Of a DNA stretch of 64,000 nt, positions 40,371 through 53,758 are shown piece after piece (position 1 is the first letter of the stretch; the number at the start of each line of letters is the position of its first letter). A model generated the notes under the pieces. The model made no database searches. It was given only the letters and a program-made list of their open reading frames with translations, and was not told the DNA's origin. The DNA lies in the IMG/VR virus record IMGVR_UViG_3300050343_000199, positions 32,001 through 96,000 of that record. One strand, written 5' to 3'. This stretch comes from a virus. The position numbers were made by a program, and so were the translations under genes.

Positions 40371-40417
40371 GTGATGAAGTGGTTTTGTTTCTTGAGTAAA
40401 GTCTACAGGGTCAGGGA

Positions 40418-40591
40418 CTAATGTCTGTCGCTGATGTTCCAGTTGGTAGATTGGACAGGTTGGATGCGTCCTGCTCTCACTGCCATGCGATACTCATGCT
40501 CTGCCTGATGCTGGCGTTGGATGTTCTCCATGACCTTCTGCATCAGAGGGGAGGGGTTCTCGTTGTGGATGAAGAAACCGGTTCGTTGCAT
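40418..40591 (-). CDS. Hypothetical early protein
   Basis: Start at MQRTGFF after A-rich leader aacaaatca; -10 TATACT at 40613-18. Confidence 0.7.
   Translation of the reverse strand: MQRTGFFIHNENPSPLMQKVMENIQRQHQAEHEYRMAVRAGRIQPVQSTNWNISDRH
40436..40457. promoter_or_regulatory. Early-promoter dyad element 1
   Basis: GTTCCAGTT-ggta-GATTGGACA; 30 nt upstream of -10 TAGACT (40400-05). Confidence 0.6.
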
Positions 40592-40623
40592 TGATTTGTT
40601 TTCCATGTCCCTAGTATAGGGGA

Positions 40624-40893
40624 TTAGTTCCACCCCGTCGCCTCTGATGGGACAGTTCCGAAATTGATTGCCATCCGACGCTTTGCAGGTCGTCTCGTGG
40701 TAACATAGTTAACCCACTGCCCCACGCTACGATCACCCGCCAACAGGAATGCAAGAATGGAGCGTCGGGAAATGTTCTCGTAGCGGTACGTCGTATCGGA
40801 GTTGAACCAAAGCACCCGAATCGTTCCGGTCAGTGGGTTGACGGTCATGGAGTCAACCGATGTGGATTCGGTGAGGGTGATAGGGAAACGCAT
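40624..40893 (-). CDS. KTSC-domain-like protein
   Basis: STSVDSM.VNP.TGTI.V.W.NS..TYRYENI.......L....SVGQWVN matches KTSC pattern. Confidence 0.55.
   Translation of the reverse strand: MRFPITLTESTSVDSMTVNPLTGTIRVLWFNSDTTYRYENISRRSILAFLLAGDRSVGQWVNYVTTRRPAKRRMAINFGTVPSEATGWN
40649..40670. promoter_or_regulatory. Early-promoter dyad element 2
   Basis: GGGACAGTT-ccga-AATTGATTG; 30 nt upstream of -10 TATACT (40613-18). Confidence 0.55.
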
Positions 40894-40941
40894 GAAATGA
40901 TTTTGTGTTGTTGGTATTGTAGCACGGGGAGGGGTGACCCC

Positions 40942-41211
40942 TCAATCTTCAACGAGTTCCAGCATCATCTCAACCATCTCATCCTCATCAATGGCGGGGT
41001 CATTCCACTTAACGCCGTCTGCTGTCTCACCGAGCATCCGACCGATCTGCCCATCTGTCATGCAGCGGACGAACTTGGTCCATGGGTTCTCGCTTCCTGC
41101 GAATCTGACACATGCCCTAGCGGTGTTGTACAGGAACTCATCGTTCTGCATCCAGAGGGATGCATTCCAGGTCTCGTAGTTTGCCCAACCGTTGTAGGTG
41201 GTGTCGGTCAT
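40942..41211 (-). CDS. Conserved phage hypothetical protein (YNGWANYETWN family)
   Basis: 89 aa; YNGWANYETWNASLW motif. Confidence 0.85.
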   Translation of the reverse strand: MTDTTYNGWANYETWNASLWMQNDEFLYNTARACVRFAGSENPWTKFVRCMTDGQIGRMLGETADGVKWNDPAIDEDEMVEMMLELVED

Positions 41212-41261
41212 GTGGTTCGTTTGCTTTGTTGTTTTAATTATACAGCCCAGGGCGTCCCTGA

Positions 41262-41456
41262 CTACCCTGCTGATGACACTTGTTCATCTGTCACATACAT
41301 CCATTTCATCCACGCCTTGGTGCCTTCCTTCCATATGGTACAATCTTCTTTCCACTCCCTCGCGTATGCATAGGCGTCAGTCATGTTGGTTGCATAGTCA
41401 CACCCGTGAGGATCAAGGCGATCCCACGTCTTCGGTTGAATTGCGTACATGTTCAC
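41262..41456 (-). CDS. Hypothetical early protein
   Basis: 64 aa; coupled to upstream stop. Confidence 0.7.
   Translation of the reverse strand: MNMYAIQPKTWDRLDPHGCDYATNMTDAYAYAREWKEDCTIWKEGTKAWMKWMYVTDEQVSSAG
41273..41294. promoter_or_regulatory. Early-promoter dyad element 3
   Basis: ATGACACTT-gttc-ATCTGTCAC; 30 nt upstream of -10 TATAAT (41237-42). Confidence 0.7.
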
Positions 41457-41686
41457 AGTCCGTTCAGGTAGTCAGCGAGTGCCTCATCGTACTCTGCCTT
41501 TGTGTCAAAGGTCCGACCGTAGATGGTGCGAGGATACGTGGCATCACGACCAGCAGCAGCGACCATCTCACAGTCTGCGCGATCGTATCCCATCTCAACC
41601 AGGTTTGCCACGTAGGGGTTGTGGATGTTCATGAGCACCTCATCGGTCTCAAGGGCAATGGTGCAGGGGTCTTTGAATTTGTTCAT
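41453..41686 (-). CDS. Conserved cyanophage hypothetical protein (start 41686 or 41632)
   Basis: NPYVANLVEMGYDRADCE...RTFDTKAEYDEAL; alternative start MNIHNPY has GAGG SD. Confidence 0.75.
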   Translation of the reverse strand: MNKFKDPCTIALETDEVLMNIHNPYVANLVEMGYDRADCEMVAAAGRDATYPRTIYGRTFDTKAEYDEALADYLNGL

Positions 41687-41727
41687 GTGTCTACAATACA
41701 CGATCTGAGGTGCTGTGCCTGTTTTGT

Positions 41728-41749
41728 GTGCCACTTAGTCAATTGGTCG
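41728..41749. promoter_or_regulatory. Early-promoter dyad element 4
   Basis: GTGCCACTT-agtc-AATTGGTCG; 29 nt upstream of -10 TATTGT (41693-98). Confidence 0.7.
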
Positions 41750-41773
41750 GGTCAGCTGACTAGTTTGTGTTAC

Positions 41774-41917
41774 TTAGTTAAACTTGGCAGTAACACTAAC
41801 TACCTTAGCGTTAGGGTTACGTGCGATGGCAACTTGCTTCGCTTCTTGATAGTCACGGGCAACAACTTGTTCTTTAAATACAGTGCCTGCAACGAATAGT
41901 GTTACTTCGTGTTTCAT
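41774..41917 (-). CDS. Small conserved cyanophage protein (47 aa); not in ORF track
   Basis: Hand-translated MKHEVTLFVAGTVFKEQVVARDYQEAKQVAIARNPNAKVVSVTAKFN*; TAATG coupling. Confidence 0.85.
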   Translation of the reverse strand: MKHEVTLFVAGTVFKEQVVARDYQEAKQVAIARNPNAKVVSVTAKFN

Positions 41918-42057
41918 TAGTTGTTGATGTCGGTGAGGTCAACTCCTAGTTCTCCGTTCTCATCTTCAACGAGAACAGTTTCTATGTTTGGCACGTCAAA
42001 GATTTCACCTTGCATGTCTTGAATTTCGTCAAACATTGAATCAATTCGTGTTAACAT
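41917..42057 (-). CDS. Small acidic hypothetical protein (46 aa)
   Basis: Start moved to MLTRIDSMFDEIQDM; downstream of dyad 5 promoter. Confidence 0.65.
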   Translation of the reverse strand: MLTRIDSMFDEIQDMQGEIFDVPNIETVLVEDENGELGVDLTDINN

Positions 42058-42098
42058 ACGTAGTATGACAGATGATTGATTGAAAATCAAGTGGTGCT

Positions 42099-42120
42099 GT
42101 GCCAGTTTACCTAGTGTCAC
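42099..42120. promoter_or_regulatory. Early-promoter dyad element 5
   Basis: GTGCCAGTT-tacc-TAGTGTCAC; 31 nt upstream of -10 CATACT (42062-67); -35-like TTGATT at 42085-90. Confidence 0.75.
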
Positions 42121-42137
42121 AATTGATCTCCAATATA

Positions 42138-42254
42138 CTATGATTGTGTTGTATAATCAATGTCTGCATCAAACATACAACTATCATCGTAGTTTGTGTC
42201 ACTATCTTCCTCTAACTGATCGTTGAGTTCTTGATACATTTCTTCTACAGTCAT
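42138..42254 (-). CDS. Small acidic hypothetical protein (38 aa); not in ORF track
   Basis: Hand-translated MTVEEMYQELNDQLEEDSDTNYDDSCMFDADIDYTTQS*. Confidence 0.5.
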   Translation of the reverse strand: MTVEEMYQELNDQLEEDSDTNYDDSCMFDADIDYTTQS

Positions 42255-42408
42255 AGTAACACTTACTATAGTATGGTAATAGTTATACTAGTTTAATAGA
42301 TTTTATTACCTTTTTACCGACAATCCATAAAAACCATGGGAATAGTTCATCATTACAACTAGTCGGTATTAGTGGCATTTAATTAAATTGTTAAAAGTAC
42401 AAAATACG

Positions 42409-42448
42409 AAAAACCTCGGAAACCGCAAAAGTTGCAATTCCCGAGTTT
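42409..42448 (-). terminator. Probable intrinsic terminator
   Basis: Transcript AAAACUCGGGAA-uuGCAAcuuUUGCgg-UUUCCGAGGUUUU followed by U-rich run, right after stop 42455. Confidence 0.65.
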
Positions 42449-42454
42449 TGTTAA

Positions 42455-42781
42455 TTATGCAAATTCAACAAACTCGTAACCGTTGGAGAAGTCGTGAGTT
42501 ACCTTATTGTCCCTGATGTACCATGCAAAGTCCTTCTGAAATACACCGTCAGTGTATGCGTTGCAGAACTCGTTGATGATAGCGTTGAGACGTGATTTGG
42601 TGGTATTAGACTGCCATCCACCGTCAAAGATACGCACGAATGCTTCACCTACCTCAGCAATCTTGTTACCATGCAAACGTACCGTAGACACACCGTCCTC
42701 AGTCACGACACTGGTATTAGCACGAGACCAATTAGAGTTGTTCTTGATAGCAGTGTTCATCAAGGATTCAATCTTACGCAT
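42455..42781 (-). CDS. Conserved marine phage hypothetical protein
   Basis: 108 aa; MRKIE..MN.AI....NW...NT.V....V.LHGN.IA......DGGWQSNTTKSRLNA motif. Confidence 0.85.
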   Translation of the reverse strand: MRKIESLMNTAIKNNSNWSRANTSVVTEDGVSTVRLHGNKIAEVGEAFVRIFDGGWQSNTTKSRLNAIINEFCNAYTDGVFQKDFAWYIRDNKVTHDFSNGYEFVEFA

Positions 42782-42822
42782 GTGATGTTAGTTAGTGTGG
42801 TGAGTATGAAAGAAAGAGGAGA

Positions 42823-42981
42823 TCAACCGTTGGCAAACTCTAGGATGCTGCTGATCTGCTCAATAACTTTATCCGACAACTCAAGACCCTGTGACTCAAT
42901 GAAGTCGCAGCACATCTCAAGATCGGGTGACATTTCGTTGATGAATGCGTTGAGTGATGCAGCGTGAGCGAGAGTGAACAT
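42823..42981 (-). CDS. Hypothetical early protein (52 aa)
   Basis: Start moved to MFTLAHAASL, downstream of TTGCAT-17-CATACT promoter. Confidence 0.7.
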   Translation of the reverse strand: MFTLAHAASLNAFINEMSPDLEMCCDFIESQGLELSDKVIEQISSILEFANG

Positions 42982-43005
42982 GCTTGATTTGTTTGGTACT
43001 TTCAT

Positions 43006-43063
43006 AGTATGGCAGAGATGGGGTTGAAATGCAACCCCTAGTGGACGGTTCGTCAGGCGGCAC
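43006..43063 (-). promoter_or_regulatory. sigma70 promoter TTGCAT-N17-CATACT plus dyad element 6 (43042..43063)
   Basis: -10 43006-11, -35 43029-34, dyad TGGACGGTT-cgtc-AGGCGGCAC 30 nt upstream of -10. Confidence 0.7.
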
Positions 43064-43304
43064 GTAGTTCGCCTTTGACTACCACGTCTGCTGGCACCCG
43101 TGATACAGTGTAACGACGGATTTGCTGGGAGAATGGACGCCATGCCTCTACGGTCTCCATCACAATGCGATCATGCTGACGATCCATGCCCTTGTGAGTC
43201 GTACACTTGCCACACTTGCGAAAATAGATGATCGGATGCTGTGGGGACTCATGCGTATCAATCTCAATCTTATAGAATGAGTGCTTGACGACTTGGACTG
43301 TCAA
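43053..43304 (-). CDS. Conserved cyanophage hypothetical protein
   Basis: 83 aa; preceded by -10 TATTGT and GGAG. Confidence 0.8.
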   Translation of the reverse strand: MTVQVVKHSFYKIEIDTHESPQHPIIYFRKCGKCTTHKGMDRQHDRIVMETVEAWRPFSQQIRRYTVSRVPADVVVKGELRAA

Positions 43305-43364
43305 TTGCTGATTTCCTGACGACTCCTATACAATACACGATTTTGAGTCCTGTGCCGTCCTACT

Positions 43365-43386
43365 GTGCCACTTTAATAACTGTCAT
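43365..43386. promoter_or_regulatory. Early-promoter dyad element 7
   Basis: GTGCCACTT-taat-AACTGTCAT; 29 nt upstream of -10 TATTGT (43330-35). Confidence 0.8.
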
Positions 43387-43531
43387 CATAGTCATTGATT
43401 TCGCGTTTGAACTTTGCTACCTTCTTTTTAGCGGATCGTTTCACATTCTTGACATTGTATCCGAAGTCTTCAAACTCATCTCGCAATTCATCGCGATAAT
43501 CAGTATTACCGCGATAGTTCTTCTTACTCAT
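43373..43531 (-). CDS. Small charged conserved protein (52 aa); not in ORF track
   Basis: Hand-translated MSKKNYRGNTDYRDELRDEFEDFGYNVKNVKRSAKKKVAKFKREINDYDDSY*. Confidence 0.8.
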   Translation of the reverse strand: MSKKNYRGNTDYRDELRDEFEDFGYNVKNVKRSAKKKVAKFKREINDYDDSY

Positions 43532-43571
43532 CGTTCTAATTTAATCTTACTGAATAACAGTGGGTGAGTGA

Positions 43572-43808
43572 TTATTTAGATGGTACAATCAATCCTTCCT
43601 TTACACTGGAAGAGATGAATCTACCGACTGATTCTTTGTTTGTTAGTGTATTTGACAGTTTAGTATTGAATTCATCTGTATTATCACAGTTGAATGTATA
43701 TTCTTTGTCAGTATTACTATTATACACGATTTTAACTAGTTTTTCATCAATTTTAACACTACTTACCGCAGTTGATGCTAGTTCTGTGTAGATTTGCACG
43801 AGTTCCAT
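43572..43808 (-). CDS. KTSC-domain-like protein
   Basis: STAVSSVKI....VKIVYNSN..KEYTF.......F........ESVGRFI pattern. Confidence 0.55.
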   Translation of the reverse strand: MELVQIYTELASTAVSSVKIDEKLVKIVYNSNTDKEYTFNCDNTDEFNTKLSNTLTNKESVGRFISSSVKEGLIVPSK

Positions 43809-43823
43809 TAAAGATTAACGTTT

Positions 43824-43916
43824 AATAATTGGAAAAACACAAAAAACTGAGAAAATAGAAACTTTGAAAAACTCAAAAATCTCAAAAACTCAGTTTTCTC
43901 TGTTTCTCCAATTATT
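43824..43916. repeat. 28-bp imperfect inverted repeat (43824-43851 / 43889-43916) with 37-nt A-rich loop
   Basis: 25/28 identity between arms; two of the three mismatches are G-U pairs on the minus-strand transcript. Confidence 0.8.
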
Positions 43917-43949
43917 ATAAGGCACCTAGGAGGGATTCTGAGGGTTTCT

Positions 43950-43971
43950 GTGCCACTTTGAGGTCTGGCAC
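43950..43971. promoter_or_regulatory. Early-promoter dyad element 8
   Basis: GTGCCACTT-tgag-GTCTGGCAC; 30 nt upstream of -10 TATAAT (43914-19). Confidence 0.8.
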
Positions 43972-44113
43972 ATGTTTGCTGGACTTTCGGTAGGTAGCGT
44001 GCTAAGCCAGCGTCTACAGAGTACCTTCACAGCATCTTGACAGTAACTACCGAGCACCTACACTATATTAATTTAATGATTAATAAAGAGTTGGGTAGTA
44101 TCCATGAGTATCT

Positions 44114-44631
44114 TTAAGATCCCTGTTGTGGAGGGGTGCGGAGAGCATGATCAGACCATGGTTCAGATAGTCTAGGCATAATATCAGGTTGAAAGAATTC
44201 ACACCATCCTGTTACAATGTATTTGTGTCCTATGTTAGGTGTAACACCTTTATGTGGGTGTGTCCAAGATGCTGGCCATATGAGGAACCTTGTTCACAAT
44301 GTGGTGTAAAGTATCCTTGCTGATCAGTATAGTGTTGTATGTTGTAATCAGATGTTATTTGCCAGAGACCACAGTAATTAAGGAATTGGTATTCATCTTT
44401 AATTTGTTGTATTAATGTTTTAACTGCTGGTAGTATGAGTTTATTGTATGATTGATCTAATGGATCTAAGAGATTACAGTATAGATCTGTTGATATCTTA
44501 TCATATTGTGATTCAAGATTACCATCTACAGTTTCACCTGGTTTCTTTCTATTATCTTGTTTAAAATGATCAATTAATTGTGTGCAATCATCTTGTGATA
44601 GTAAGTCTTGACAAATAGTAATGAACGTCAT
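44114..44631 (-). pseudogene. 2OG-Fe(II) oxygenase with out-of-frame internal deletion
   Basis: Frame A ends ...YNIQHY...GYFTPHCEQGSS; another frame (44284..44114) encodes LIWPASWTHPHKGVTPNIGHKYIVTGW...; the intervening LVWMIYLN..GGT.F segment expected in this family is missing. Confidence 0.75.
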
Positions 44632-44843
44632 TTAAATCCTTTAGATGACGGGATATCTATCACTTCAACATGAGATAAGAATTGCTTAGGAGTTTGAAAC
44701 CATTTAAGGTAAAGGTCTTGCCAATCAGTGTATTTGTGTTGTGTATTATCCTTGTAATGTAGGATGTAATGATGTCTATCGTATGGTTCTGTTGATGTAT
44801 GGGTAAAGTATTGTGGATCAGAGGGTTGGATCAATTGTGTCAT
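44628..44843 (-). CDS. Conserved cyanophage hypothetical protein
   Basis: MTQLIQPSDPQYF..TS..PYDRHHY motif. Confidence 0.75.
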   Translation of the reverse strand: MTQLIQPSDPQYFTHTSTEPYDRHHYILHYKDNTQHKYTDWQDLYLKWFQTPKQFLSHVEVIDIPSSKGFK

Positions 44844-45057
44844 CGTATTTGGTTGCACGTTTACCTAGGTATTGTACTTCATCATAGAATCTATTGTATA
44901 CTAATAGAAGTATATGATGTTTTTTATGTGGAGAACCTTGATTATCTTTCTTTGGTCGGATGCCAAGTTCTAATGTAAAGTATTCAGGGCAGATGAAGTA
45001 TACCCAACCTTCATGATCTTTCCATCTTATTCTATCATTAATTGTTGGTTGATACAT
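44818..45057 (-). CDS. Conserved cyanophage hypothetical protein
   Basis: 79 aa; EGWVYFIC.EY.TLELG. Confidence 0.75.
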   Translation of the reverse strand: MYQPTINDRIRWKDHEGWVYFICPEYFTLELGIRPKKDNQGSPHKKHHILLLVYNRFYDEVQYLGKRATKYDDTIDPTL

Positions 45058-45063
45058 TACTTT

Positions 45064-45651
45064 TTACCAATGTTCAGGATTACTAAATGGATTAATCATA
45101 CCTTTATTCGGTATTAATGGGGGTTGTTTGATGTAATTAAAGTTAATCACAACACGACGATCTGTTGTAGTAAATGGTGTAGATGAATGTTCGTATGATG
45201 ATGGAAATTCAACCAATCTATTTGCGACTGTCTCCACCTCTAGTTCTTCATTATCAGGATCATTGAATATTGTACAACCATCACTATCATGTACATAGAA
45301 TATTGCAGTAGTACAATCAAATGTCGTATCAGTATGATATGCACGACGTTGTTGTGTACTAGTATACCAACTCAGATTAGCACGACAACGAATCATTGCA
45401 GCAATAGGTATTTGATTGATGATAGGGCGTATGTAATTATATCCTAGATTTAACATTGGTACATCAGGATATAGTTCTGGTCCTTTAGTATCAGACCAAA
45501 AGATATGCTGCATCAATGGATAGTTACCAGGTTGATTACTACCACATGTATACCATGCCATACGATTACTCATGATATACTCTTGCAATCGTTCAAACTG
45601 CTCCTGTGATAAGAAGTTATCAGTGATTACAATCTTACTTTCATCAATCAT
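45064..45651 (-). CDS. 2OG-Fe(II) oxygenase
   Basis: YHTD..FDCTTAIFYV..SDG.T.F; ANRLVEFPSSYEHSS; RRVVINFNY (HxD...H...R). Confidence 0.9.
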   Translation of the reverse strand: MIDESKIVITDNFLSQEQFERLQEYIMSNRMAWYTCGSNQPGNYPLMQHIFWSDTKGPELYPDVPMLNLGYNYIRPIINQIPIAAMIRCRANLSWYTSTQQRRAYHTDTTFDCTTAIFYVHDSDGCTIFNDPDNEELEVETVANRLVEFPSSYEHSSTPFTTTDRRVVINFNYIKQPPLIPNKGMINPFSNPEHW

Positions 45652-46199
45652 TTTTCAAAACCCTCGTAGTATCCATCCATATGTACTGTCATACCTGGAG
45701 GTGTAAGATAGAAATTACCTGCTAATATTAGTCTATCATCTACTGGACATTTGTCAACACCATGTATCACACCCATTGGTAATATAACTACGAGTCCTTC
45801 TTCTACTGGTATTTCTGTATTAGATGATGGGAGAAGGAGAGGTGAAGAGTTAGGTGGTGTTCTCACATAGTATACAAAAGAGTATTGTGTTGGGATGTGA
45901 TGATGTGGTACTGAGAAATCATCTTTTGAATACTTAGCAAACCATGTTGAGACAATAGTAAATGTATGATCTAATGTGTAATGTATGTTTTTAGAAGTAG
46001 TATGTACTACCCAATCAACAATGGTATCAATAGCAGGAGATTCTACCCACCATTCAGACATATGTTTAACACGTACTGTTGACACATTAGTTTTTTTCCA
46101 TCCAAGTGTATGTGCATCAGTATACAATTGTTTATTGATGGAAAGATCAGGGTATACAGCAGTGATTACATTGATATTTTCTTTATGTGGTATGATCAT
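45648..46199 (-). CDS. 2OG-Fe(II) oxygenase (TIGR02466-like)
   Basis: TWFAKYSK.DFSVPHHH.P..YSFVYYV; VILP..VIHGV; RLILAGN; ATGA coupling at 46199. Confidence 0.85.
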   Translation of the reverse strand: MIIPHKENINVITAVYPDLSINKQLYTDAHTLGWKKTNVSTVRVKHMSEWWVESPAIDTIVDWVVHTTSKNIHYTLDHTFTIVSTWFAKYSKDDFSVPHHHIPTQYSFVYYVRTPPNSSPLLLPSSNTEIPVEEGLVVILPMGVIHGVDKCPVDDRLILAGNFYLTPPGMTVHMDGYYEGFEK

Positions 46200-46783
46200 C
46201 GTCTGTAATGCCAATTGTAAGAGAAAGTCACCCGAGGACCAAAGATTTTAGGTGCATGATATACTCCTCTTGGAATATAGATGGCATCACCTGGATGAAG
46301 TTGATGAATTGTATCATCTTCAAACTCATATTGAATCATACCCATACATTGTATGATGAAAAGAGAATGAGGATCACGATGAGATTTAAAGACATATGAT
46401 TCAGCAATGACATTACTGTAAATGTGTAAGTTTTCAAGTTTTAAATCAAATGCTTCTTGACATATGTTAACAGTGTTAGGATCAAGAAAGTCTTGAGTAT
46501 GTGTAACGATAGTTGGTAGAATAACCTGTCTATCACCACGTATTGCTAAATCAGGGTAATCAGTTTCACCTTCATAATCAATTTGATTTTCATGTACAAG
46601 TGTATCTGGTGGTATGAGACATCTTAAGTAATCATGATTACGTTCTTGTTGCCAGAGGGGGACAATATTATCCCAAGTAATTGTTGCATGTTGAGGAAAA
46701 CGACCGCGAAAGACTTTAACTTCATCACCCCATTCAATGGTAGGATCATAGGTTGTGGGAGTAATTTCAAATTCTGCTTTCAT
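46196..46783 (-). CDS. JmjC/cupin-4-like 2OG-Fe(II) oxygenase
   Basis: LHIYSN......FKSHRDPHSLFIIQCMG; LHPGDAIYIPRGVYHAP; RVTFSY. Confidence 0.85.
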   Translation of the reverse strand: MKAEFEITPTTYDPTIEWGDEVKVFRGRFPQHATITWDNIVPLWQQERNHDYLRCLIPPDTLVHENQIDYEGETDYPDLAIRGDRQVILPTIVTHTQDFLDPNTVNICQEAFDLKLENLHIYSNVIAESYVFKSHRDPHSLFIIQCMGMIQYEFEDDTIHQLHPGDAIYIPRGVYHAPKIFGPRVTFSYNWHYRR

Positions 46784-47274: not shown

Positions 47275-47503
47275 TTGTTTGTGCTTTTGATTTCGTATGA
47301 TCATCACGAGACCTATTTTTAATTACAATGAATGCATCCTTATTATACTTACGATGACCTTTAGGTGATGCCCATTTCTTATTATATCCTTCTGGTTGTT
47401 CAATACCAGAAACTACAGTACCACCAACCTCAAGTACAATATCATCATGTGTGACATCCCAACCAAGAGTATGCATCATATGCCATAGTTCATCTTGAGT
47501 CAT
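47267..47503 (-). CDS. Conserved cyanophage hypothetical protein
   Basis: GWDVTHDDIV.EVGGT.V.GI...KWA..KG.RKYNKDAFIVIKNRSR. Confidence 0.85.
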   Translation of the reverse strand: MTQDELWHMMHTLGWDVTHDDIVLEVGGTVVSGIEQPEGYNKKWASPKGHRKYNKDAFIVIKNRSRDDHTKSKAQTNE

Positions 47504-47643
47504 TTGCCAACTCCATAATCAGGTGCTTGTTCTTCTAGTTTACGAATGCCATCATGTAATTTCTTCAATGCAGCACGAGTTTCAGGAGTTTCTTCATACT
47601 CCCAGATATCACCTTTCTTATTCACCATTTTCTTCTTAGTCAT
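47500..47643 (-). CDS. Small hypothetical protein (47 aa); not in ORF track
   Basis: Hand-translated MTKKKMVNKKGDIWEYEETPETRAALKKLHDGIRKLEEQAPDYGVGK*; coupled at both ends. Confidence 0.75.
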   Translation of the reverse strand: MTKKKMVNKKGDIWEYEETPETRAALKKLHDGIRKLEEQAPDYGVGK

Positions 47644-47798
47644 TAGTACTGTTCTCCATCTTTTGCTTTAGGGAAAGAATGCACAATCTCAACGATGGTT
47701 TGAACCATCTCACCTTGTGTTGCAGCAGGCATTGCAGTCACGTACAATAACCCGATGCCACATAATGTAGTTGTCAATAACCAAAAACGGTTGCTCAT
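47643..47798 (-). CDS. Small membrane/secreted protein (51 aa); not in ORF track
   Basis: Hand-translated MSNRFWLLTTTLCGIGLLYVTAMPAATQGEMVQTIVEIVHSFPKAKDGEQY*; first gene after dyad 9 promoter. Confidence 0.65.
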   Translation of the reverse strand: MSNRFWLLTTTLCGIGLLYVTAMPAATQGEMVQTIVEIVHSFPKAKDGEQY

Positions 47799-47855
47799 GA
47801 TATAGGTTGGTTACTCTGTTATTATAACACAGATCACCAGTGCTCAGGGTTGCTT

Positions 47856-47877
47856 GTGCCAGTTGTAATAGTGGTCA
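47856..47877. promoter_or_regulatory. Early-promoter dyad element 9
   Basis: GTGCCAGTT-gtaa-TAGTGGTCA; 29 nt upstream of -10 TATAAT (47821-26). Confidence 0.8.
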
Positions 47878-47878
47878 T

Positions 47879-48241
47879 CTATTGGTTGTGGTTGTAGCAT
47901 AAGCACTTATAATCTTTAATTGGATAGAGGTTATACCTCGTGACATATTTAATCACATGATCTTCACATTGAAACCAGCACTTCTTATTGTCTTCCTTAC
48001 GATTTTCTAGAAACCATGGGAACATATCCACGTAAGGAAATAGATTTAACTTACGTGAATTCTGATACCTAAACTCTGTTGCTGGTGTACTCTTGCCCTT
48101 CGCTTTCGCTGTTGTACCAGAAGTCTTGGTAGTCTTCTTGCGTGGCGTCACTGATGTTAACGCTTTGATATTCTCCTCTAGTTTTCTTTGAGTAGTTCGT
48201 GAGGATGATTTGTTCGTTGACGACTGTCCAACAGATTTCAT
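47879..48241 (-). CDS. Conserved cyanophage hypothetical protein, basic N-terminus overlapping the AbrB-like gene
   Basis: C-terminal FPWFLENRKE..KKCWFQCEDHV.KY..RY motif; start uncertain (MKSV at 48241). Confidence 0.65.
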   Translation of the reverse strand: MKSVGQSSTNKSSSRTTQRKLEENIKALTSVTPRKKTTKTSGTTAKAKGKSTPATEFRYQNSRKLNLFPYVDMFPWFLENRKEDNKKCWFQCEDHVIKYVTRYNLYPIKDYKCLCYNHNQ

Positions 48242-48353
48242 CTCCTTCTTGCCAGTTGAGTTCGTTGGTGATTTCTTCTGGGATTTCAATGTAGTAGTCC
48301 TCTGTGTCTTTGTACTGTTGTACTTTAGTGATGTACTTATTTGATGAATCCAT
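48069..48353 (-). CDS. AbrB/SpoVT-like (swapped-hairpin) DNA-binding protein
   Basis: YYIEIPEEI.NELNWQEGDEI.W......IIL matches AbrB/MazE pattern. Confidence 0.7.
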   Translation of the reverse strand: MDSSNKYITKVQQYKDTEDYYIEIPEEITNELNWQEGDEICWTVVNEQIILTNYSKKTRGEYQSVNISDATQEDYQDFWYNSESEGQEYTSNRV

Positions 48354-49041
48354 TGTTCTCTAACCATTCACGTGTCATAGGAGTTGGTTCATAATCTGAC
48401 CACATTGTTCCTGCTGCACAACTTTCAAGAGCACTCAATGTCATTCCTTCTGTCTTACCCGCCCATGTTGCTTCTTTCTCCCACGGAATTGCACCTGGTT
48501 GCAATACATATGAACGCTTCGCCATCTCTTGCCACAACATTGGTACGCTATCTTCAGGCATAATGATAGCAATCATACTATTATCAATCGTACCTGCCAT
48601 ACAATCCTGCGCTGCATGCCATCCTTCATGACGCATAACACTCATGAGTGTATTAGGACGACCCATAAATGCTTTGTTCAAGAAGAAGTTATTACTCACA
48701 GTATGATAGACACCACGATGTCCTACAGGGAAATACTTCTCATCCGCAAGATATACTCTGACACCGATTTGATTCAATGCTACAAGCATATGATTGAATT
48801 CATTGGCAACAGGATAGAAAGAATCTGTGTTGTCATACTGAGAGGAAACATCCAACAGAGAGAACACTTCAGTTACATCATCAGTACACTCCTGAAGAAG
48901 CATACATCCCATGGAATGGTTGGAATAGTAATCATCATCTGTAAGAGGATCTGCAATTGCAGGAGTGCCTACATTGGCAGCAAGTGCTACTACAGTACCA
49001 ACAACAGCATTAATCAGTTTAGTTTGAAAGGGCATAACCAT
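48337..49041 (-). CDS. Secreted HExxH (zincin-like) protein
   Basis: Signal-peptide-like N-terminus ending PAIA|DP; VMRHEGWHAAQDCM; WEKEA downstream Glu. Confidence 0.7.
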   Translation of the reverse strand: MVMPFQTKLINAVVGTVVALAANVGTPAIADPLTDDDYYSNHSMGCMLLQECTDDVTEVFSLLDVSSQYDNTDSFYPVANEFNHMLVALNQIGVRVYLADEKYFPVGHRGVYHTVSNNFFLNKAFMGRPNTLMSVMRHEGWHAAQDCMAGTIDNSMIAIIMPEDSVPMLWQEMAKRSYVLQPGAIPWEKEATWAGKTEGMTLSALESCAAGTMWSDYEPTPMTREWLENNGFIK

Positions 49042-49205
49042 GTGTCATAATCAGTTTGTTCAATTCTACCATCATTATATAAAATGTCAAGGAACTTACT
49101 CCAATACTCTTGCTTTGCAGGTATGTTACCACGTAATTCGGGATGCCATACCTTAAGCATCTTTCGGCAGATCCATACTGCCTCCTTCTTTGTTAGGTAT
49201 TCCAT
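49014..49205 (-). CDS. Hypothetical protein
   Basis: 63 aa; K..YW..FLD.L..DG.I...YD.W.CPF. Confidence 0.7.
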   Translation of the reverse strand: MEYLTKKEAVWICRKMLKVWHPELRGNIPAKQEYWSKFLDILYNDGRIEQTDYDTWLCPFKLN

Positions 49206-49350
49206 AGTTGTGAATAAAATAGAGAAAACTTTTGAGTGAACGTTTGATACTCAAACTCTTTTTAATCTCCAACCAATCTTGATACTCTTGTTCTAGAGTA
49301 TCAATCAGGGGAATCTTCGCTACAAAGGGCTTTGATTTTGTTGATGTCAT
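49153..49350 (-). CDS. Hypothetical protein
   Basis: 65 aa; EYQDWLEIK..L.IKRSLKSFLYF. Confidence 0.6.
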   Translation of the reverse strand: MTSTKSKPFVAKIPLIDTLEQEYQDWLEIKKSLSIKRSLKSFLYFIHNYGIPNKEGGSMDLPKDA

Positions 49351-49435
49351 ACAGAATCTTCTCTGCTAGCGCGTGATCTTTCTTGTTTTCCGCTTCCATG
49401 TACAATAGTATCAATTCCTTGATTTGTTCATCCAT
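49301..49435 (-). CDS. Small helical protein (44 aa); not in ORF track
   Basis: Hand-translated MDEQIKELILLYMEAENKKDHALAEKILYDINKIKALCSEDSPD*; fills gap, coupled to upstream stop. Confidence 0.6.
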   Translation of the reverse strand: MDEQIKELILLYMEAENKKDHALAEKILYDINKIKALCSEDSPD

Positions 49436-49655
49436 GTTGGAGCGATTTGTAGAGTTCTGCGAGCTCATCTTCGTTGTAAAACAAAGTTTGCTCGTTTATG
49501 TAGCCCTCTGGATCCATCCATTCAAACCACTCATCTGCAAAATGCAGTGCATCATCAACACGATCATCTGCAATTAGTTCACGAAAGCGAGTCATCATCC
49601 ATTCACAAATGTCATCGCGTTGTTCGGATATCCGAAGAGCATCAACGTTATTCAT
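49428..49655 (-). CDS. Conserved cyanophage hypothetical protein
   Basis: 75 aa; ATGA coupling. Confidence 0.75.
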   Translation of the reverse strand: MNNVDALRISEQRDDICEWMMTRFRELIADDRVDDALHFADEWFEWMDPEGYINEQTLFYNEDELAELYKSLQHG

Positions 49656-49945
49656 AGTTTGATAAGAGTCAGTTTGTTGTTGAGGTGATCGTAAGAGACA
49701 AATTTAACGTCTTTAGGCAAAGATTGCATCAATGCCTTGGTAAATTCTAGAGTGTAGTGACCATGATAACGCCAGAAGCGTCTGTATTCGTCTGTGAGGG
49801 GTTCTGCAGTGGTTGTGACAGGTACACTGTACTCACCTCTGCTATAATGCGTTGGAAGCGGTTTTAAGAGGGTCTTGATATCTGCTACAATTAATGGAGC
49901 AGCATGTTGGGGTTTCGTCTTAGTATATCGGGACAAGTAAATCAT
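49652..49945 (-). CDS. Conserved cyanophage hypothetical protein
   Basis: 97 aa; RRFWRYHG.YTLEF.KALM. Confidence 0.75.
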   Translation of the reverse strand: MIYLSRYTKTKPQHAAPLIVADIKTLLKPLPTHYSRGEYSVPVTTTAEPLTDEYRRFWRYHGHYTLEFTKALMQSLPKDVKFVSYDHLNNKLTLIKL

Positions 49946-50172
49946 TTGACGAAGACCTCCTGAAGTTGTTCTTGAGATAGTTGTTGTGCTTGTTTGAGTA
50001 GATTACACATGTGTGCAACATACTCAACATCCTCTTCATCTGGACTGAATTCATAAGAACCAGACCAATCCACACTGCCGTCATCATTAACAGCAGCACC
50101 AAACATATAACCGTCATCTTCAATGGCAAATGCATTACCATCAGCAACGAGATAGAACAGGGGAGCAGACAT
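49942..50172 (-). CDS. Hypothetical acidic protein
   Basis: 76 aa; downstream of TTGACA-17-TATACT promoter. Confidence 0.75.
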   Translation of the reverse strand: MSAPLFYLVADGNAFAIEDDGYMFGAAVNDDGSVDWSGSYEFSPDEEDVEYVAHMCNLLKQAQQLSQEQLQEVFVK

Positions 50173-50194
50173 GAGATAAGATCGGATGAACTAC

Positions 50195-50223
50195 AGTATA
50201 CTATGTATGAAGTGGGATGTCAA
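50195..50223 (-). promoter_or_regulatory. Consensus sigma70 promoter TTGACA-N17-TATACT (no clear dyad)
   Basis: tgtcaa 50218-23, agtata 50195-200. Confidence 0.8.
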
Positions 50224-50678
50224 CCGGTGTAACCAGCATTGCGATAGAGGTAACCACCGGCCCAGTCAGCGTTTTCAAGCATAAACTCACGCTCTTTGAT
50301 GATCAACATGTTGAAACGAACACCTTTGGCAGGTGCTTTAATTGATGCTGGTTTGTATACTTCACCAGTGGTCTTGTTCACGAAAGCATGAACACTACGA
50401 TTACCACCATCAGTAGTCATCATGACCTTGTGATACTTGCGTCCAGTGTCAACAGTAAACTGATACGTACCAATGTTACGCTTCAGGTCCGCAATCTTCT
50501 GCTCATGATACTCTCTGTTCACAGCAGATGCTAAGAAGAACTCTTGACGACGGATGCTTTCCTTCACAAAGTCCTGCTCAAGTGCTTGACAGAGTGCAAA
50601 TGTATGACCCAAGATCGCTTGTGCGATGTCGTTACGTGCCTCAGCAGATGCAGCGTAGTCAGCGAAGGTGGTGGTCAT
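50220..50678 (-). CDS. Conserved T4-like phage hypothetical protein
   Basis: GRKYHKV......RSVHAFV.K.TGEVYKPAS.KAPAKGVRFN motif. Confidence 0.85.
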   Translation of the reverse strand: MTTTFADYAASAEARNDIAQAILGHTFALCQALEQDFVKESIRRQEFFLASAVNREYHEQKIADLKRNIGTYQFTVDTGRKYHKVMMTTDGGNRSVHAFVNKTTGEVYKPASIKAPAKGVRFNMLIIKEREFMLENADWAGGYLYRNAGYTG

Positions 50679-50717
50679 TGGGTGGTTCCCTTTGGTATGA
50701 ATATAGTATAGGCTGGA

Positions 50718-50879
50718 TCAGAGCAGATCCAATGCCTCCTGTGACAGTTCTTCAGTCGCACACTTGCGCCAGTCTTGATTTTGTCTGGTATAGTCTGCAA
50801 AGTTGTTTACTGCATCATCATTGATCTCATCAATTTGCTCTAGAAGCCAACGATCAAGCATTACTTCAGAAATAGACAT
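50718..50879 (-). CDS. Small acidic protein (53 aa); not in ORF track
   Basis: Hand-translated MSISEVMLDRWLLEQIDEINDD...QEALDLL*; TAATG coupling. Confidence 0.7.
   Translation of the reverse strand: MSISEVMLDRWLLEQIDEINDDAVNNFADYTRQNQDWRKCATEELSQEALDLL
50741..50761. promoter_or_regulatory. Early-promoter dyad element 10
   Basis: GTGACAGTT-ctt-CAGTCGCAC; 30 nt upstream of -10 TATACT (50705-10). Confidence 0.7.
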
Positions 50880-51025
50880 TAGTTAAAATTAATAGTGATT
50901 TGTTCAAATTCAAGATGATCACAGCATGTGTCATCATCATGTAGATCAATCATGTCAGTGTCAACATGACTGAATAGTTTATCAAATAGGTCGTTAACGA
51001 ACTCTTGATTGGATTGTTGAGTCAT
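50879..51025 (-). CDS. Small acidic protein (48 aa); not in ORF track
   Basis: Hand-translated MTQQSNQEFVNDLFDKLFSHVDTDMIDLHDDDTCCDHLEFEQITINFN*. Confidence 0.7.
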   Translation of the reverse strand: MTQQSNQEFVNDLFDKLFSHVDTDMIDLHDDDTCCDHLEFEQITINFN

Positions 51026-51128
51026 AGTAGTTCATCATTTTTGAATCACGCTCTGCTAAGAATAGCAGGTAGCATGTGAGAGCAACAACGGTAAAGATAC
51101 CGCCTAGGAGATACTGAGTTACTTTCAT
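50994..51128 (-). CDS. Small single-TM membrane protein (44 aa); not in ORF track
   Basis: Hand-translated MKVTQYLLGGIFTVVALTCYLLFLAERDSKMMNYYDSTIQSRVR*. Confidence 0.7.
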   Translation of the reverse strand: MKVTQYLLGGIFTVVALTCYLLFLAERDSKMMNYYDSTIQSRVR

Positions 51129-51286
51129 TAGTTGTCTTCACCAAACATTTCGTTGAATAAGTTGCGACCATCGTAGTCTGTGTTACGCTCACGATTGGCA
51201 TATGCTTCCATGCGTTGGCGAGCAGTGTACTCATCAACGTTGTAGGGCAGGTAAAGCATGGTGCCGTTGGGGAGTTGCTTGAGCAT
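51128..51286 (-). CDS. Small hypothetical protein (52 aa); not in ORF track
   Basis: Hand-translated MLKQLPNGTMLYLPYNVDEYTARQRMEAYANRERNTDYDGRNLFNEMFGEDN*. Confidence 0.7.
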   Translation of the reverse strand: MLKQLPNGTMLYLPYNVDEYTARQRMEAYANRERNTDYDGRNLFNEMFGEDN

Positions 51287-51317
51287 GGTGTTGGTTGCTT
51301 ATGTGCTTATTATAGGG

Positions 51318-51482
51318 TCATTCCTCCACCTGAAGCGCGTACCTGTGCCACTTCTCTAAGTGGTCATACAGAAACGCATCATCAACATGCTTATGGTATA
51401 CATGGTCTTTAGGATACTTCATCATCATATCCATTACAAATTTCATTTGTTCCGCAGTGAACGGAACTCTTACAATATTCAT
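51318..51482 (-). CDS. Small hypothetical protein (54 aa); not in ORF track
   Basis: Hand-translated MNIVRVPFTAEQMKFVMDMMMKYPK...YALQVEE*; ATGA coupling. Confidence 0.65.
   Translation of the reverse strand: MNIVRVPFTAEQMKFVMDMMMKYPKDHVYHKHVDDAFLYDHLEKWHRYALQVEE
51345..51366. promoter_or_regulatory. Early-promoter dyad element 11
   Basis: GTGCCACTT-ctct-AAGTGGTCA; 30 nt upstream of -10 TATAAT (51309-14). Confidence 0.8.
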
Positions 51483-51640
51483 TCTCCTAATACGGGGATA
51501 ACATCTACAGTACTCACATTAGGATCTTCTTGAATGTTTTTTACTAAATGCAATACATCAGCATCATTGAACAATACAACAGATTGTCTACTACGATATC
51601 CTTTTTGCTTGCTTCTCCACCATTCAACACGGTATTTCAC
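51479..51640 (-). CDS. Small hypothetical protein (53 aa); not in ORF track
   Basis: Hand-translated MKYRVEWWRSKQKGYRSRQSVVLFN...VIPVLGE*; GTGA coupling. Confidence 0.7.
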   Translation of the reverse strand: MKYRVEWWRSKQKGYRSRQSVVLFNDADVLHLVKNIQEDPNVSTVDVIPVLGE

Positions 51641-51975
51641 AATGAAGATCCTCGCTGGAATTTAGTAACGTCACCAAGGGTAATATGAGCAGCATAACCA
51701 TATGATGTACTACCATCATCGTTGTATACAGGATCCTCTTGCTTGATATCTTTTCTATAGTATGCATCAGTATTAAAATCTTGATCAAGTGACATCAAGC
51801 ATCTCAACTCTTCTGCACGATTTGCTACTCTACCATGTAGATCAATCACATCCTGGATACAAGATATAATCTCTTCATACGCTTGTCGTGCTGATACTTT
51901 ATCATCGTGGAGATAATCATCAATCGCATCTTGCATACGAAATTTGCGTTGGTGCTCATAAGATCCTTCTTGCAT
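51637..51975 (-). CDS. Hypothetical protein
   Basis: Start moved to MQEGSYE (TAATG coupling); RMQDAIDDYL.D. Confidence 0.7.
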   Translation of the reverse strand: MQEGSYEHQRKFRMQDAIDDYLHDDKVSARQAYEEIISCIQDVIDLHGRVANRAEELRCLMSLDQDFNTDAYYRKDIKQEDPVYNDDGSTSYGYAAHITLGDVTKFQRGSSL

Positions 51976-52166
51976 TAGTTGAACTCCTGTTGACGACGTT
52001 GTTGTAGGTATTGAAGAATGTCTTGTCTCCACTCCATTAATTCATTGAAACATTCTTGATTGTGAGCACATGACCGAAGTCTATTGTCAGGCTTCAATAC
52101 ACTCTCGTAAAACAAACCGAATGCATCCTTACGCTTTTGCTGCTTCAAATCATAATACTCAGACAT
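51975..52166 (-). CDS. Conserved cyanophage hypothetical protein
   Basis: DAFGLFYESVLKPD..LR..AH.Q.CF.ELMEWR. Confidence 0.8.
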   Translation of the reverse strand: MSEYYDLKQQKRKDAFGLFYESVLKPDNRLRSCAHNQECFNELMEWRQDILQYLQQRRQQEFN

Positions 52167-52200
52167 AGTGCCCCTAGAACTGGTGTAATTATAGCATACT

Positions 52201-52521
52201 TTAACTTAAAAAGTTAAGTATTGATGGTCTAAATGGTTTGAGTATCTGCATAGCAGTATAAACTCTGGTATCATTTATATCTACTTCCGCACCTATTTTA
52301 TTACAGTTGATGGGGGCATGGTAAGTGTGCGTAGTGCTTCTCTTCGTTCGCTTGAACTTGATGAATCCCCAGATGGTACGAATAGGACTATCAGTAGTAT
52401 AAGCATAACTTTGAGTGTTACAAAGCCATATAGCAACCACATTACGTTTGAAATCCTGACAATCATAGTAACAGTGCTCGGGTGCTTTATGTGGAAAATC
52501 TGAGGGTAGTTCTATCATCAA
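52201..52521 (-). CDS. Conserved cyanophage hypothetical protein
   Basis: LP.DFPH.AP..Y...FKRNVVAIW; APIN..KIG.EV....TR.YTAM. Confidence 0.8.
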   Translation of the reverse strand: MMIELPSDFPHKAPEHCYYDCQDFKRNVVAIWLCNTQSYAYTTDSPIRTIWGFIKFKRTKRSTTHTYHAPINCNKIGAEVDINDTRVYTAMQILKPFRPSILNFLS

Positions 52522-52763
52522 CCCACTGCCATCGGAGCATACTCAGAGCGTGGCATCTGCTCTACGTTGTAGTTAGTTACCTCAGCACCGTTAGCGATAC
52601 GCTCTGCCCACTCATTACGTGCTGTGAGCATGGTGACAGTGCTGTAGGACTTGAGACCGTTAGCATTCCAGGTGACACGCTTCTGGAAACGCTTGACGCC
52701 CTCGTCAGCGATGAATGCTTCAGGGAAGAAGTCAACTGTGGTGACGAGTGTAGTGAGTTGCAT
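52518..52763 (-). CDS. Conserved cyanophage hypothetical protein
   Basis: 81 aa; MQLTT..T.VDFFPEAFIA. Confidence 0.75.
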   Translation of the reverse strand: MQLTTLVTTVDFFPEAFIADEGVKRFQKRVTWNANGLKSYSTVTMLTARNEWAERIANGAEVTNYNVEQMPRSEYAPMAVG

Positions 52764-52871
52764 GTTAAGGAAAGAAAGGTTTGCTAGTCCCTAGGAGACT
52801 AGCGCGTGACGTGGAAGGTCTCCCCTCCACTCATCTAATATACACGGTTATGGGATGCTGTGCTGGTTTGG

Positions 52872-52893
52872 TGGACAGTTCAGCAACTGGTTC
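52872..52893. promoter_or_regulatory. Early-promoter dyad element 12
   Basis: TGGACAGTT-cagc-AACTGGTTC; 29 nt upstream of -10 TATATT (52837-42). Confidence 0.75.
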
Positions 52894-53086
52894 ATTCAAA
52901 AACTGGTATGATTCGTTCACGCATCTCTTTCAACTGCTGTGGATCATTACCATACTCACCCATATGCATGAAAACACAATCAATGTATCGTAAATTATTA
53001 CGTTCAGCATCAAGGACAAAGGAATCACAATACCTTAAGATATCTGGAGGTACTTCTAAATTCTGATAGTCGTAATCAATAGTCAT
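52892..53086 (-). CDS. Conserved cyanophage hypothetical protein
   Basis: Start moved to MTIDYDY; LRYIDCVFMHMGEYGNDP. Confidence 0.75.
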   Translation of the reverse strand: MTIDYDYQNLEVPPDILRYCDSFVLDAERNNLRYIDCVFMHMGEYGNDPQQLKEMRERIIPVFE

Positions 53087-53678
53087 AGTTAATAAGTTTT
53101 TTGTAAAATGGATCACATATTTTGTATTGACCTTTAATGTGACTCTTACCAATAAGATCTTTATTGATATAGTGTACAGTCAATGATGGATGATCAATCC
53201 AGTCTTTATATGTCCATGATGCAGATCGTACATATTGATTGCCTCCCTCTTCACATTTCTTTCGTATTTGTGAATCAAGTTTGTGTGCTACTGCATCAAT
53301 AGTAAACTCTACAACGTAATGTAGTATGCCATGAACAAACAAACCATGAATAATAGGAAGATTGACATCAGTATCCTTGTCATATCTTGCTCTAGTATAA
53401 TCATTGAAGCACCCGCTACCATTAGTAGTCTTATTAGTGTAGTTCTTTGGTTTAATCTCTTTCTCTATGTTAGTCCCGATTTGGATTGCATCTCTGCCAA
53501 GCTTACCAGGAAGAGGGTTACATCCAGCAACACGAGCAACAATATGCTCACGCAAAGTGGAACTATTAGAGTCGTTGATGTAGACTTCATACAATTCCTC
53601 AAAAAGATCACATTCTGTTTGTGTGGGATGACCTAGTGCTCGGTCAGTTGCAAGTGAAATTAATTGCTCGGAGAACAT
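53076..53678 (-). CDS. Putative PD-(D/E)xK restriction-endonuclease-like protein
   Basis: INDSNSSTLRE...GRDA......EKEIKP catalytic-like spacing; start moved to MFSEQ downstream of its own promoter. Confidence 0.5.
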   Translation of the reverse strand: MFSEQLISLATDRALGHPTQTECDLFEELYEVYINDSNSSTLREHIVARVAGCNPLPGKLGRDAIQIGTNIEKEIKPKNYTNKTTNGSGCFNDYTRARYDKDTDVNLPIIHGLFVHGILHYVVEFTIDAVAHKLDSQIRKKCEEGGNQYVRSASWTYKDWIDHPSLTVHYINKDLIGKSHIKGQYKICDPFYKKLINYDY

Positions 53679-53700
53679 TGGATTGATGGACAACTCACAT

Positions 53701-53758
53701 AGTATGGCACATATGTTTGAGTATGTCAAGGTCACTGTGACAGTTATTAATCGTCCAC
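53701..53758 (-). promoter_or_regulatory. sigma70 promoter TTGACA-N17-CATACT plus dyad element 13 (53737..53758)
   Basis: -10 53701-06, -35 53724-29, dyad GTGACAGTT-atta-ATCGTCCAC 30 nt upstream of -10. Confidence 0.85.

Follow-up and report, generated by a model that had tools for sequence, protein, structure and literature searches.

How are the first genes of a T4-like cyanophage switched on? The question is raised by a 64,000-nucleotide window (bases 32001-96000) of the 192.8-kb genome of a T4-like Synechococcus cyanomyovirus (IMG/VR record IMGVR_UViG_3300050343_000199), whose closest relatives are S-CAM4 and ACG-2014j/e, at ~85% identity and in patches only. The start and timing of transcription in T4-like cyanophages have been an open matter since the first genomes: cyanomyoviruses lack alt, modA/B, motA and asiA, and a review describes their early control as unclear (PMC2984593). 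Within the window, a sequence-only reading had picked out 13 promoters in which a dyad stands upstream of a -10 box, mostly without a -35, and had proposed an undescribed regulon. Here we suggest that these are early-class promoters with a -10 alone, at which the dyad would be bound by a pre-existing host protein, the regulator PlmA, that recruits RNA polymerase. We put the probability of this reading at about one in two; binding and activation are judged from the identity of the dyad's half-site with that of a proven PlmA site.

All 13 dyads were recovered on the minus strand, the one that encodes the small genes of this region, and each is followed 29-31 nucleotides (nt) past its half-site by a -10 hexamer (TATAAT, TATACT, CATACT, TATTGT, TATATT or TAGACT). 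As first described, the promoter-proximal half is the better kept, with the core AASTGKCAC followed by A, and the distal half GTGMCASTT is weaker and stands after exactly 4 nt. The exact proximal half AASTGKC[AC]C occurs at nine of the 13 sites, with weaker versions at 40436 (AACTGGAAC), 41273 (AAGTGTCAT), 43042 (AACCGTCCA) and 52872 (AACTGTCCA). The best match to a -35 is at most 3/6 in nine sites, 4/6 in three and 6/6 only at 53737, in agreement with the estimate that about nine of the promoters have none. At least four dyads (40436, 40649, 43042, 53737) lie inside or across the 3' ends of upstream open reading frames (ORFs), as had also been observed.

The element is enriched over shuffled sequence. 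Full dyads with up to three mismatches number 8 in the window against 0.61 expected, and none of 100 shuffles reached 8. In the 192.8-kb genome the strict half-site was counted 14 times, nine of these being on the minus strand of one 12-kb stretch (genome 73.7-85.8 kb). Chance is thus no explanation for the dyads and the clustering of their half-sites. Enrichment of 7-mer words was too noisy to define a motif. The earlier statement that the late blocks contain none has to be qualified: four further sites of this type occur beyond the window, none of them within a structural block.

For comparison, we assembled the genomes of Syn9, S-PM2, P-TIM40, P-HM2, S-CAM4 and P-SSM2. When -10-like hexamers were counted at every distance from STGKCAC across seven phage genomes, a single peak appeared at a gap of 30/31 nt, with 37 and 22 counts versus ~4.5 elsewhere. 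From these genomes 106 sites were picked by the proximal half and the -10 only. In this set the distal half is present at a spacer of N=4 only (mean match 5.65/9 versus ~2.5 at other offsets), and matches of at least 7/9 number 44 at N=4 versus 0-3 at other offsets. The dyad and its spacing are real.

The resulting consensus is tgtG.CA.Tt-N4-aAcTGgCACA, followed by ~29 bases without conservation and by TATAaT. Only 9 of 82 sites from the seven phages have a -35 that matches at 5/6 or better. The first ATG of these 82 mostly lies 20-29 nt past the -10, a distance of 6 nt occurring five times, and such short distances are consistent with real promoters. If the transcription start site (TSS) is taken as 7 nt past the -10, the dyad lies at about -64 to -43 of the predicted TSS, with its centre near -53.5. 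One dyad serves divergent promoters with real genes in P-HM2 (39300/39307) and in P-SSM2 (66599/66606), and a terminator-like hairpin is frequent in the spacer, for instance in P-SSM2, S-PM2 and S-CRM01.

In IMG/VR, at least 120 contigs carry a perfect dyad. Among the matches listed there are 110 distinct perfect dyads, and in 78 of them a -10 matching at 5/6 or better lies 29-31 nt away (70 on one side, 8 on both); the proximal halves among the dyads listed include AACTGGCAC (34), AAGTGGCAC (29), AACTGTCAC (14) and AAGTGTCAC (7). In 89 of the 117 perfect dyads listed, one arm has AAC and the other AAG at the S position (~57 would be expected of independent arms), and perfectly palindromic dyads seem to be avoided. 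A hairpin in RNA or DNA was considered and rejected: the variable arm positions show no complementary correlation (CG 40, AG 37, CT 25, AT 10), and because the arms do not co-vary, a hairpin is not what is selected.

Several known promoter types were compared with this anatomy. The absence of a motA- or asiA-like gene, first reported for the window, extends to the whole genome (PF09114 and PF09010 absent). A T4 MotA/AsiA middle promoter was accordingly rejected, the spacer being unconserved and without a MotA box at -30. Both are phage promoter classes in which another element replaces the -35, but the MotA box is asymmetric and at -30, whereas the dyad is symmetric and lies farther upstream. 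The view that CRP or NtcA geometry does not fit is borne out by both the consensus and the centre of the dyad, which differ from class II sites (GTA-N8-TAC or TGTGA-N6-TCACA at -41.5). A sigma-54 promoter (TGGCAC-N5-TTGC) was also set aside, since past CAC only an A is conserved and then nothing until the -10 thirty nt on.

The late promoters of P2 Ogr/P4 Delta and the Mor/C promoters of Mu have a -10, a poor -35 and an upstream dyad near -55 (P2) or -43.5 (Mu), on which a small activator touches RNA polymerase. The logic is the same here, and the centre of the dyad is nearly equal (~-53.5). Those promoters differ in belonging to the late or middle class and in having an unrelated site sequence; the class described here is an early one, and so its activator must already be present. 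Neither PF04606 (Ogr_Delta) nor PF08765 (Mor) was found in the genome at E<=1, and with no activator gene this type was rejected, geometry alone being alike. A dimeric factor that recruits host RNA polymerase to a class distinct from that of T4, as the sequence-only reading proposed, remains the natural interpretation of a symmetric site that replaces the -35.

The cassette was found in Syn9, S-PM2, P-SSM2, P-HM2, P-TIM40, S-CAM4 and S-CRM01, that is, in all the cyanobacterial T4-like phages tested, and the hosts of the phages that bear it include marine Synechococcus, Prochlorococcus and freshwater Synechococcus. In Syn9 (44.8-53.0 kb) and P-TIM40 (48.9-55.0 kb) it lies in regions of small genes; the freshwater cyanophage S-CRM01 has 33 sites. 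The unrelated marine Synechococcus myovirus S-TIM5 (NC_019516) carries six variant sites clustered at 163789-170947, and no cassette was found in the pelagiphage HTVC008M (filed by its record under Kyanoviridae), in phiM9 or in T4. Its presence as a variant in S-TIM5 and its absence from HTVC008M indicate that the element tracks the host phylum and not phage kinship. The S-TIM5 variant reads ..CAGTT-N4-nASTGGCCC, followed by a second GGCCCTGT box and then by 31 nt to TATACT or TATATT.

Given this conservation, which includes Syn9 and P-TIM40, the regulon cannot be called undescribed, and the sequence-only interpretation is supported in part. Doron et al. 2016 (ISME J 10:1437) reportedly described, in Syn9 and P-TIM40, a novel element that regulates early genes; it is said to be conserved across T4-like cyanophages and to abound both there and in metagenomes. 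Both of these study phages carry the dyad, the ~30 nt and the -10, and the dyad cassette is very probably that element; the present phage would be a new instance. In Sullivan 2010, the sites sought were sigma-70, T4-late, Pho and NtcA only.

What protein, then, might bind the dyad? In marine picocyanobacteria, the GntR regulator PMM1637/PlmA binds CGRE1, a 21-22-nt palindrome with its edge 55-57 nt upstream of the TSS of yfr2, as established by DNA pull-down, electrophoretic mobility shift assay (EMSA) with an R50A control and a green fluorescent protein (GFP) assay; PMM1637 homologues are present in all cyanobacteria and exclusive to them (Lambrecht et al. 2018, PMC6191309). According to PMC6778093, the MED4 genome has no other copies of CGRE1. 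Cyano-1/Yfr2 RNAs (RF01701) served as anchors for locating the host site. As written in host genomes, CGRE1 is AACTGKCAC-N1-GTGMCAGTT: both 9-mers of the phage are there, but their order is reversed (everted). Of 81 host-family genomes, at least 16 hold a perfect 19-mer of this form, usually a single one, and in WH7803 the site adjoins the Cyano-1/Yfr2 RNA. A different guess at CGRE1, GTTG-N3-GTGNCAC-N3-CAAC, gave host matches no better than control. Half-sites ending in GGCCC, as in S-TIM5, are also present in some host CGRE1-like sites.

The sequence-only reading had held that the binding protein is not identifiable. This is true of the window alone, but the host genomes give a candidate in PMM1637/PlmA, whose CGRE1 half-site is identical. 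Five host genomes were found to contain exactly one GntR gene apiece; the phage genome contains none. We propose that the dyad would be bound by a DNA-binding protein that the cell contains before the phage DNA arrives, that this protein would recruit host RNA polymerase, and that the early genes would in this way fire first without a phage-made factor. The protein would most likely be the host's single GntR regulator PlmA (the PMM1637 orthologue), a candidate because its proven site is built of the same 9-mers. Early phage transcription may thereby be coupled to the nitrogen and light state of the host that PlmA reports.

A distribution that follows the host phylum would also fit a dyad that needs no separate factor and is read, like an UP element, by two alpha C-terminal domains or by some other part of the host RNA polymerase that is specific to cyanobacteria. 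Phage early promoters, those of T4 among them, typically have strong upstream elements, and in other bacteria the stretch from about -64 to -43 is touched by the alpha C-terminal domains. The introduction of PMC5780444 makes the same point about strong upstream elements. UP elements, however, are A/T-rich, whereas this site contains G+C, is sharply defined and two-fold symmetric, and has an invariant 4-nt centre. Moreover, a GntR protein has been shown to bind these very 9-mers, and host promoters in general do not use the site. We regard direct reading by the polymerase as very improbable.

A closer likeness to the host emerges when yfr2 promoters are aligned on their -10. Those of the Prochlorococcus type consist of H, N1, rc(H), N4, TAGTTGC.., 30 nt and the -10 (H = AACTGKCAC), and rc(H) and the degenerate third arm occupy the same columns as the phage dyad. 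Measured from the end of GTGMCAGTT, the -10 is 42-44 nt away in these promoters and 43 nt away in the phage, and [AC]CAGTT stands in that register in 15 of 29 yfr2 promoters picked by the RNA model only. Host and phage promoters thus share an identical half-site AACTGKCAC, a GTGMCAGTT arm in the same register, ~43 nt before the -10, and a degenerate downstream arm after N4 in the host. They differ in that CGRE1 has everted arms, a 1-2 nt spacer and its second arm upstream, whereas the phage site has inverted arms, a 4-nt spacer and its second arm downstream, and in that a host genome has one to a few sites and this phage 13-17. Of the features that define CGRE1, the phages show the half-site and the edge position but not the everted arms. 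On the reading that we favour, the phage cassette would reproduce, in symmetrised form, the promoter-proximal part of the Yfr2 small-RNA promoter of the host.

There are two yfr2 geometries: the gap from CGRE1 to the -10 is 7-8 nt in marine Synechococcus and 42-44 nt in low-GC Prochlorococcus-type genomes. The two positions may correspond to opposite regulatory outcomes. Many GntR-family proteins are repressors, and the site of marine Synechococcus, which overlaps the -35, is in a typical repressor location. The phage dyad could on this ground be an operator, through which PlmA or a phage early protein shuts the early class off at the middle switch or in unfavourable host states, and the -10 (perhaps extended) would initiate alone. 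The quick drop of early transcripts after their peak in published time courses (PMC5082946) would suit such a role. But the phage site lies upstream of the core promoter, where binding is no block to polymerase, and nine of the 13 promoters are without a usable -35 and would be weak unaided. The strict phasing of 29-31 nt and the shared divergent dyads point instead to a face-specific contact with polymerase, and PMM1637 is read as mediating induction (PMC6191309). We consider an operator improbable.

Scans of host genomes for the phage arrangement bear on whether the binding protein could come from the phage. In five Synechococcus genomes (13.6 Mb) the exact arrangement with a -10 gave only 1 match, versus at least 8 per 0.19-Mb phage genome, and in 151 host-family genomes the perfect arrangement was no commoner than a control pattern. 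These results would be expected if the dyad were bound by a phage protein that comes in the virion and enters with the DNA, or is made within minutes from promoters with a normal -35 and then activates the rest. Promoter 13 of the window (numbered by increasing position), the sole one of the 13 with a perfect TTGACA -35 at 17-bp spacing, and its Syn9 counterpart at 43129, which has both, carry TTGACA-17-CATACT and could work unaided. The null host scans do not mean that a host counterpart is lacking, the downstream arm of the host promoter being too degenerate for the perfect phage pattern.

Other evidence goes against a phage protein. The genome has no Ogr, Mor, MotA or GntR gene, and a tblastn phyletic profile for genes in all eight cyanobacterial phages and absent from HTVC008M yielded none with a recognisable DNA-binding domain. 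The profile returned psbA, psbD, probable talC (by size), hli, glutaredoxins, MazG, a 48-amino-acid (aa) basic peptide and an 87-aa unknown. In addition, the unrelated S-TIM5 has the variant site and the related pelagiphage has none, and the identity of the half-site with that of a proven host regulator would have to be coincidence. A phage-encoded factor is therefore unlikely in our view, though less so than an operator. Among the genes of the window, a very basic, Lys/Arg-rich ORF of 48 aa (P0001; 38547-38693, minus strand) has tblastn matches in 9/9 cyanobacterial phages, S-TIM5 included, and none in HTVC008M. It has no Pfam match and might be a nucleic-acid-binding or virion-internal peptide.

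Several observations weigh against PlmA as the early activator. In its proven site the arms are everted and 1-2 nt apart; in the phage they are inverted and 4 nt apart. The everted form is almost never found in phages (0-1 sites per genome, versus 2-21 inverted-N4 sites, at up to two mismatches), nor was the perfect inverted form found in hosts. Given the different arrangement of the arms, a rigid dimer would be unable to bind both sites in the same way; PlmA might bind inverted arms via flexible linkers or as a higher oligomer, which is speculation. The yfr5 promoter, which has one half only, was not shifted in EMSA (PMC6191309). Expression of early phage genes also takes place in darkness (PMC5082946) and in many strains that are resistant (PMC6708340), and PlmA would then have to be constitutively active on the phage site. 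Finally, we infer early timing in this phage from position and homology, and the TSSs are predicted.

More broadly, and somewhat more tentatively than for this phage, T4-like cyanophages, and perhaps S-TIM5, may hijack PlmA via perfected copies of the Yfr2 promoter. Such a system would need no phage protein and could work in any picocyanobacterium, and it would be tuned by nitrogen, light and redox state via PII-PipX and thioredoxin. If PlmA does drive the early class, the PlmA regulon, 'yet unknown' in 2020 (PMC7344720), would gain its largest known set of sites, and the early phase of infection in the most abundant marine phototrophs would be tied to the nutrient and light state of the host. 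It would also provide a simple reason for the early expression of broad-host-range cyanophages even in resistant strains (PMC6708340). In the literature searched, no text links the phage element to the host site or names a binding protein: phages are not mentioned in PMC6191309, and neither PMC6778093 nor a 2020 PipX review contains a link between PlmA and phages. What is new here is the proposed connection to PlmA and the host site; the promoter element itself belongs to a known class.

The 13 promoters, all on the minus strand, mostly precede small ORFs without assigned function, the family matches being several 2OG-Fe(II) oxygenases and one DUF7717 protein. Promoter 13 (53701-53758) is the first of the cluster, with its dyad at 53737-53758 (AACTGTCAC), 30 nt and the -10 CATACT at 53701-53706. 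It is followed by promoter 12 (52837-52893; dyad 52872-52893 with AACTGTCCA, 29 nt, TATATT 52837-52842) and by promoter 11 (51309-51366), in which the dyad at 51345-51366 (AAGTGGCAC) is separated by 30 nt from TATAAT at 51309-51314, with an ATG at 51286. The DUF7717 protein (152 aa, ATG 50678) lies behind promoter 10 (50705-50762; dyad 50741-50762 with AACTGTCAC, 30 nt, TATACT 50705-50710). Promoter 9 (47821-47877) has its dyad at 47856-47877 (AACTGGCAC), 29 nt, TATAAT at 47821-47826 and an ATG at 47798.

Promoter 8 (43914-43971; dyad 43950-43971, GTGCCAGAC ctca AAGTGGCAC; 30 nt; TATAAT 43914-43919) has a long leader, the first ORF starting ~105 nt downstream, and heads an operon with 2OG-Fe(II) oxygenase genes. 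The same proximal half is used by promoter 7 (43330-43386), with the dyad ATGACAGTT atta AAGTGGCAC at 43365-43386, 29 nt and TATTGT at 43330-43335. The dyad of promoter 6 (43006-43063) is degenerate (43042-43063, AACCGTCCA) and stands 30 nt from CATACT at 43006-43011, and that of promoter 5 (42062-42120) is near-perfect (42099-42120, GTGACACTA ggta AACTGGCAC), with 31 nt to CATACT at 42062-42067. Promoter 4 (41693-41749) combines a dyad at 41728-41749 (AAGTGGCAC) with TATTGT at 41693-41698 after 29 nt, and an ATG 6 nt past the -10. A spacing of 30 nt is common to the three remaining promoters: promoter 3 (41237-41294; dyad 41273-41294, GTGACAGAT..AAGTGTCAT; TATAAT 41237-41242; ATG 41211), promoter 2 (40613-40670; dyad 40649-40670, AACTGTCCC; TATACT 40613-40618; ATG 6 nt past the -10) and promoter 1 (40400-40457; dyad 40436-40457 with the weak proximal half AACTGGAAC; TAGACT 40400-40405), which precedes a 166-aa ORF with its ATG at 40370.

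In-frame ATGs on the minus strand lie at 40606 and 41686 for promoters 2 and 4 (6 nt past the -10) and at 42057 for promoter 5 (4 nt). The predicted TSS at these three promoters falls on or next to the start codon, which suggests leaderless mRNAs. On the plus strand, a TATAAT lies 31 nt from the other arm of the promoter 5 dyad (~42152-42157), with no obvious plus-strand ORF behind it; this dyad is possibly a divergent promoter pair, the second member being antisense to the small-gene cluster.

Beyond the window, the four promoters of the same class, each with a half-site and a -10, are on the minus strand at genome positions 110718, 127461, 137357 and 175982. A terminator-like hairpin lies within the spacer at 110718, good -35 elements are present at 127461 (TTGACG) and 137357 (TTGACA), the latter upstream of an hli-like gene, and the promoter at 175982 precedes a 362-aa ORF. 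In some spacers, part of the half-site is repeated ~17 nt downstream, as GGCACAG at promoters 4 and 7 and GCACAG at promoter 12. In P-TIM40, CACTACCG is conserved in the spacers of the 50.3-55.0 kb region. Such spacer repeats lie at about -33 to -26, and may be a lineage-specific stand-in for the -35.

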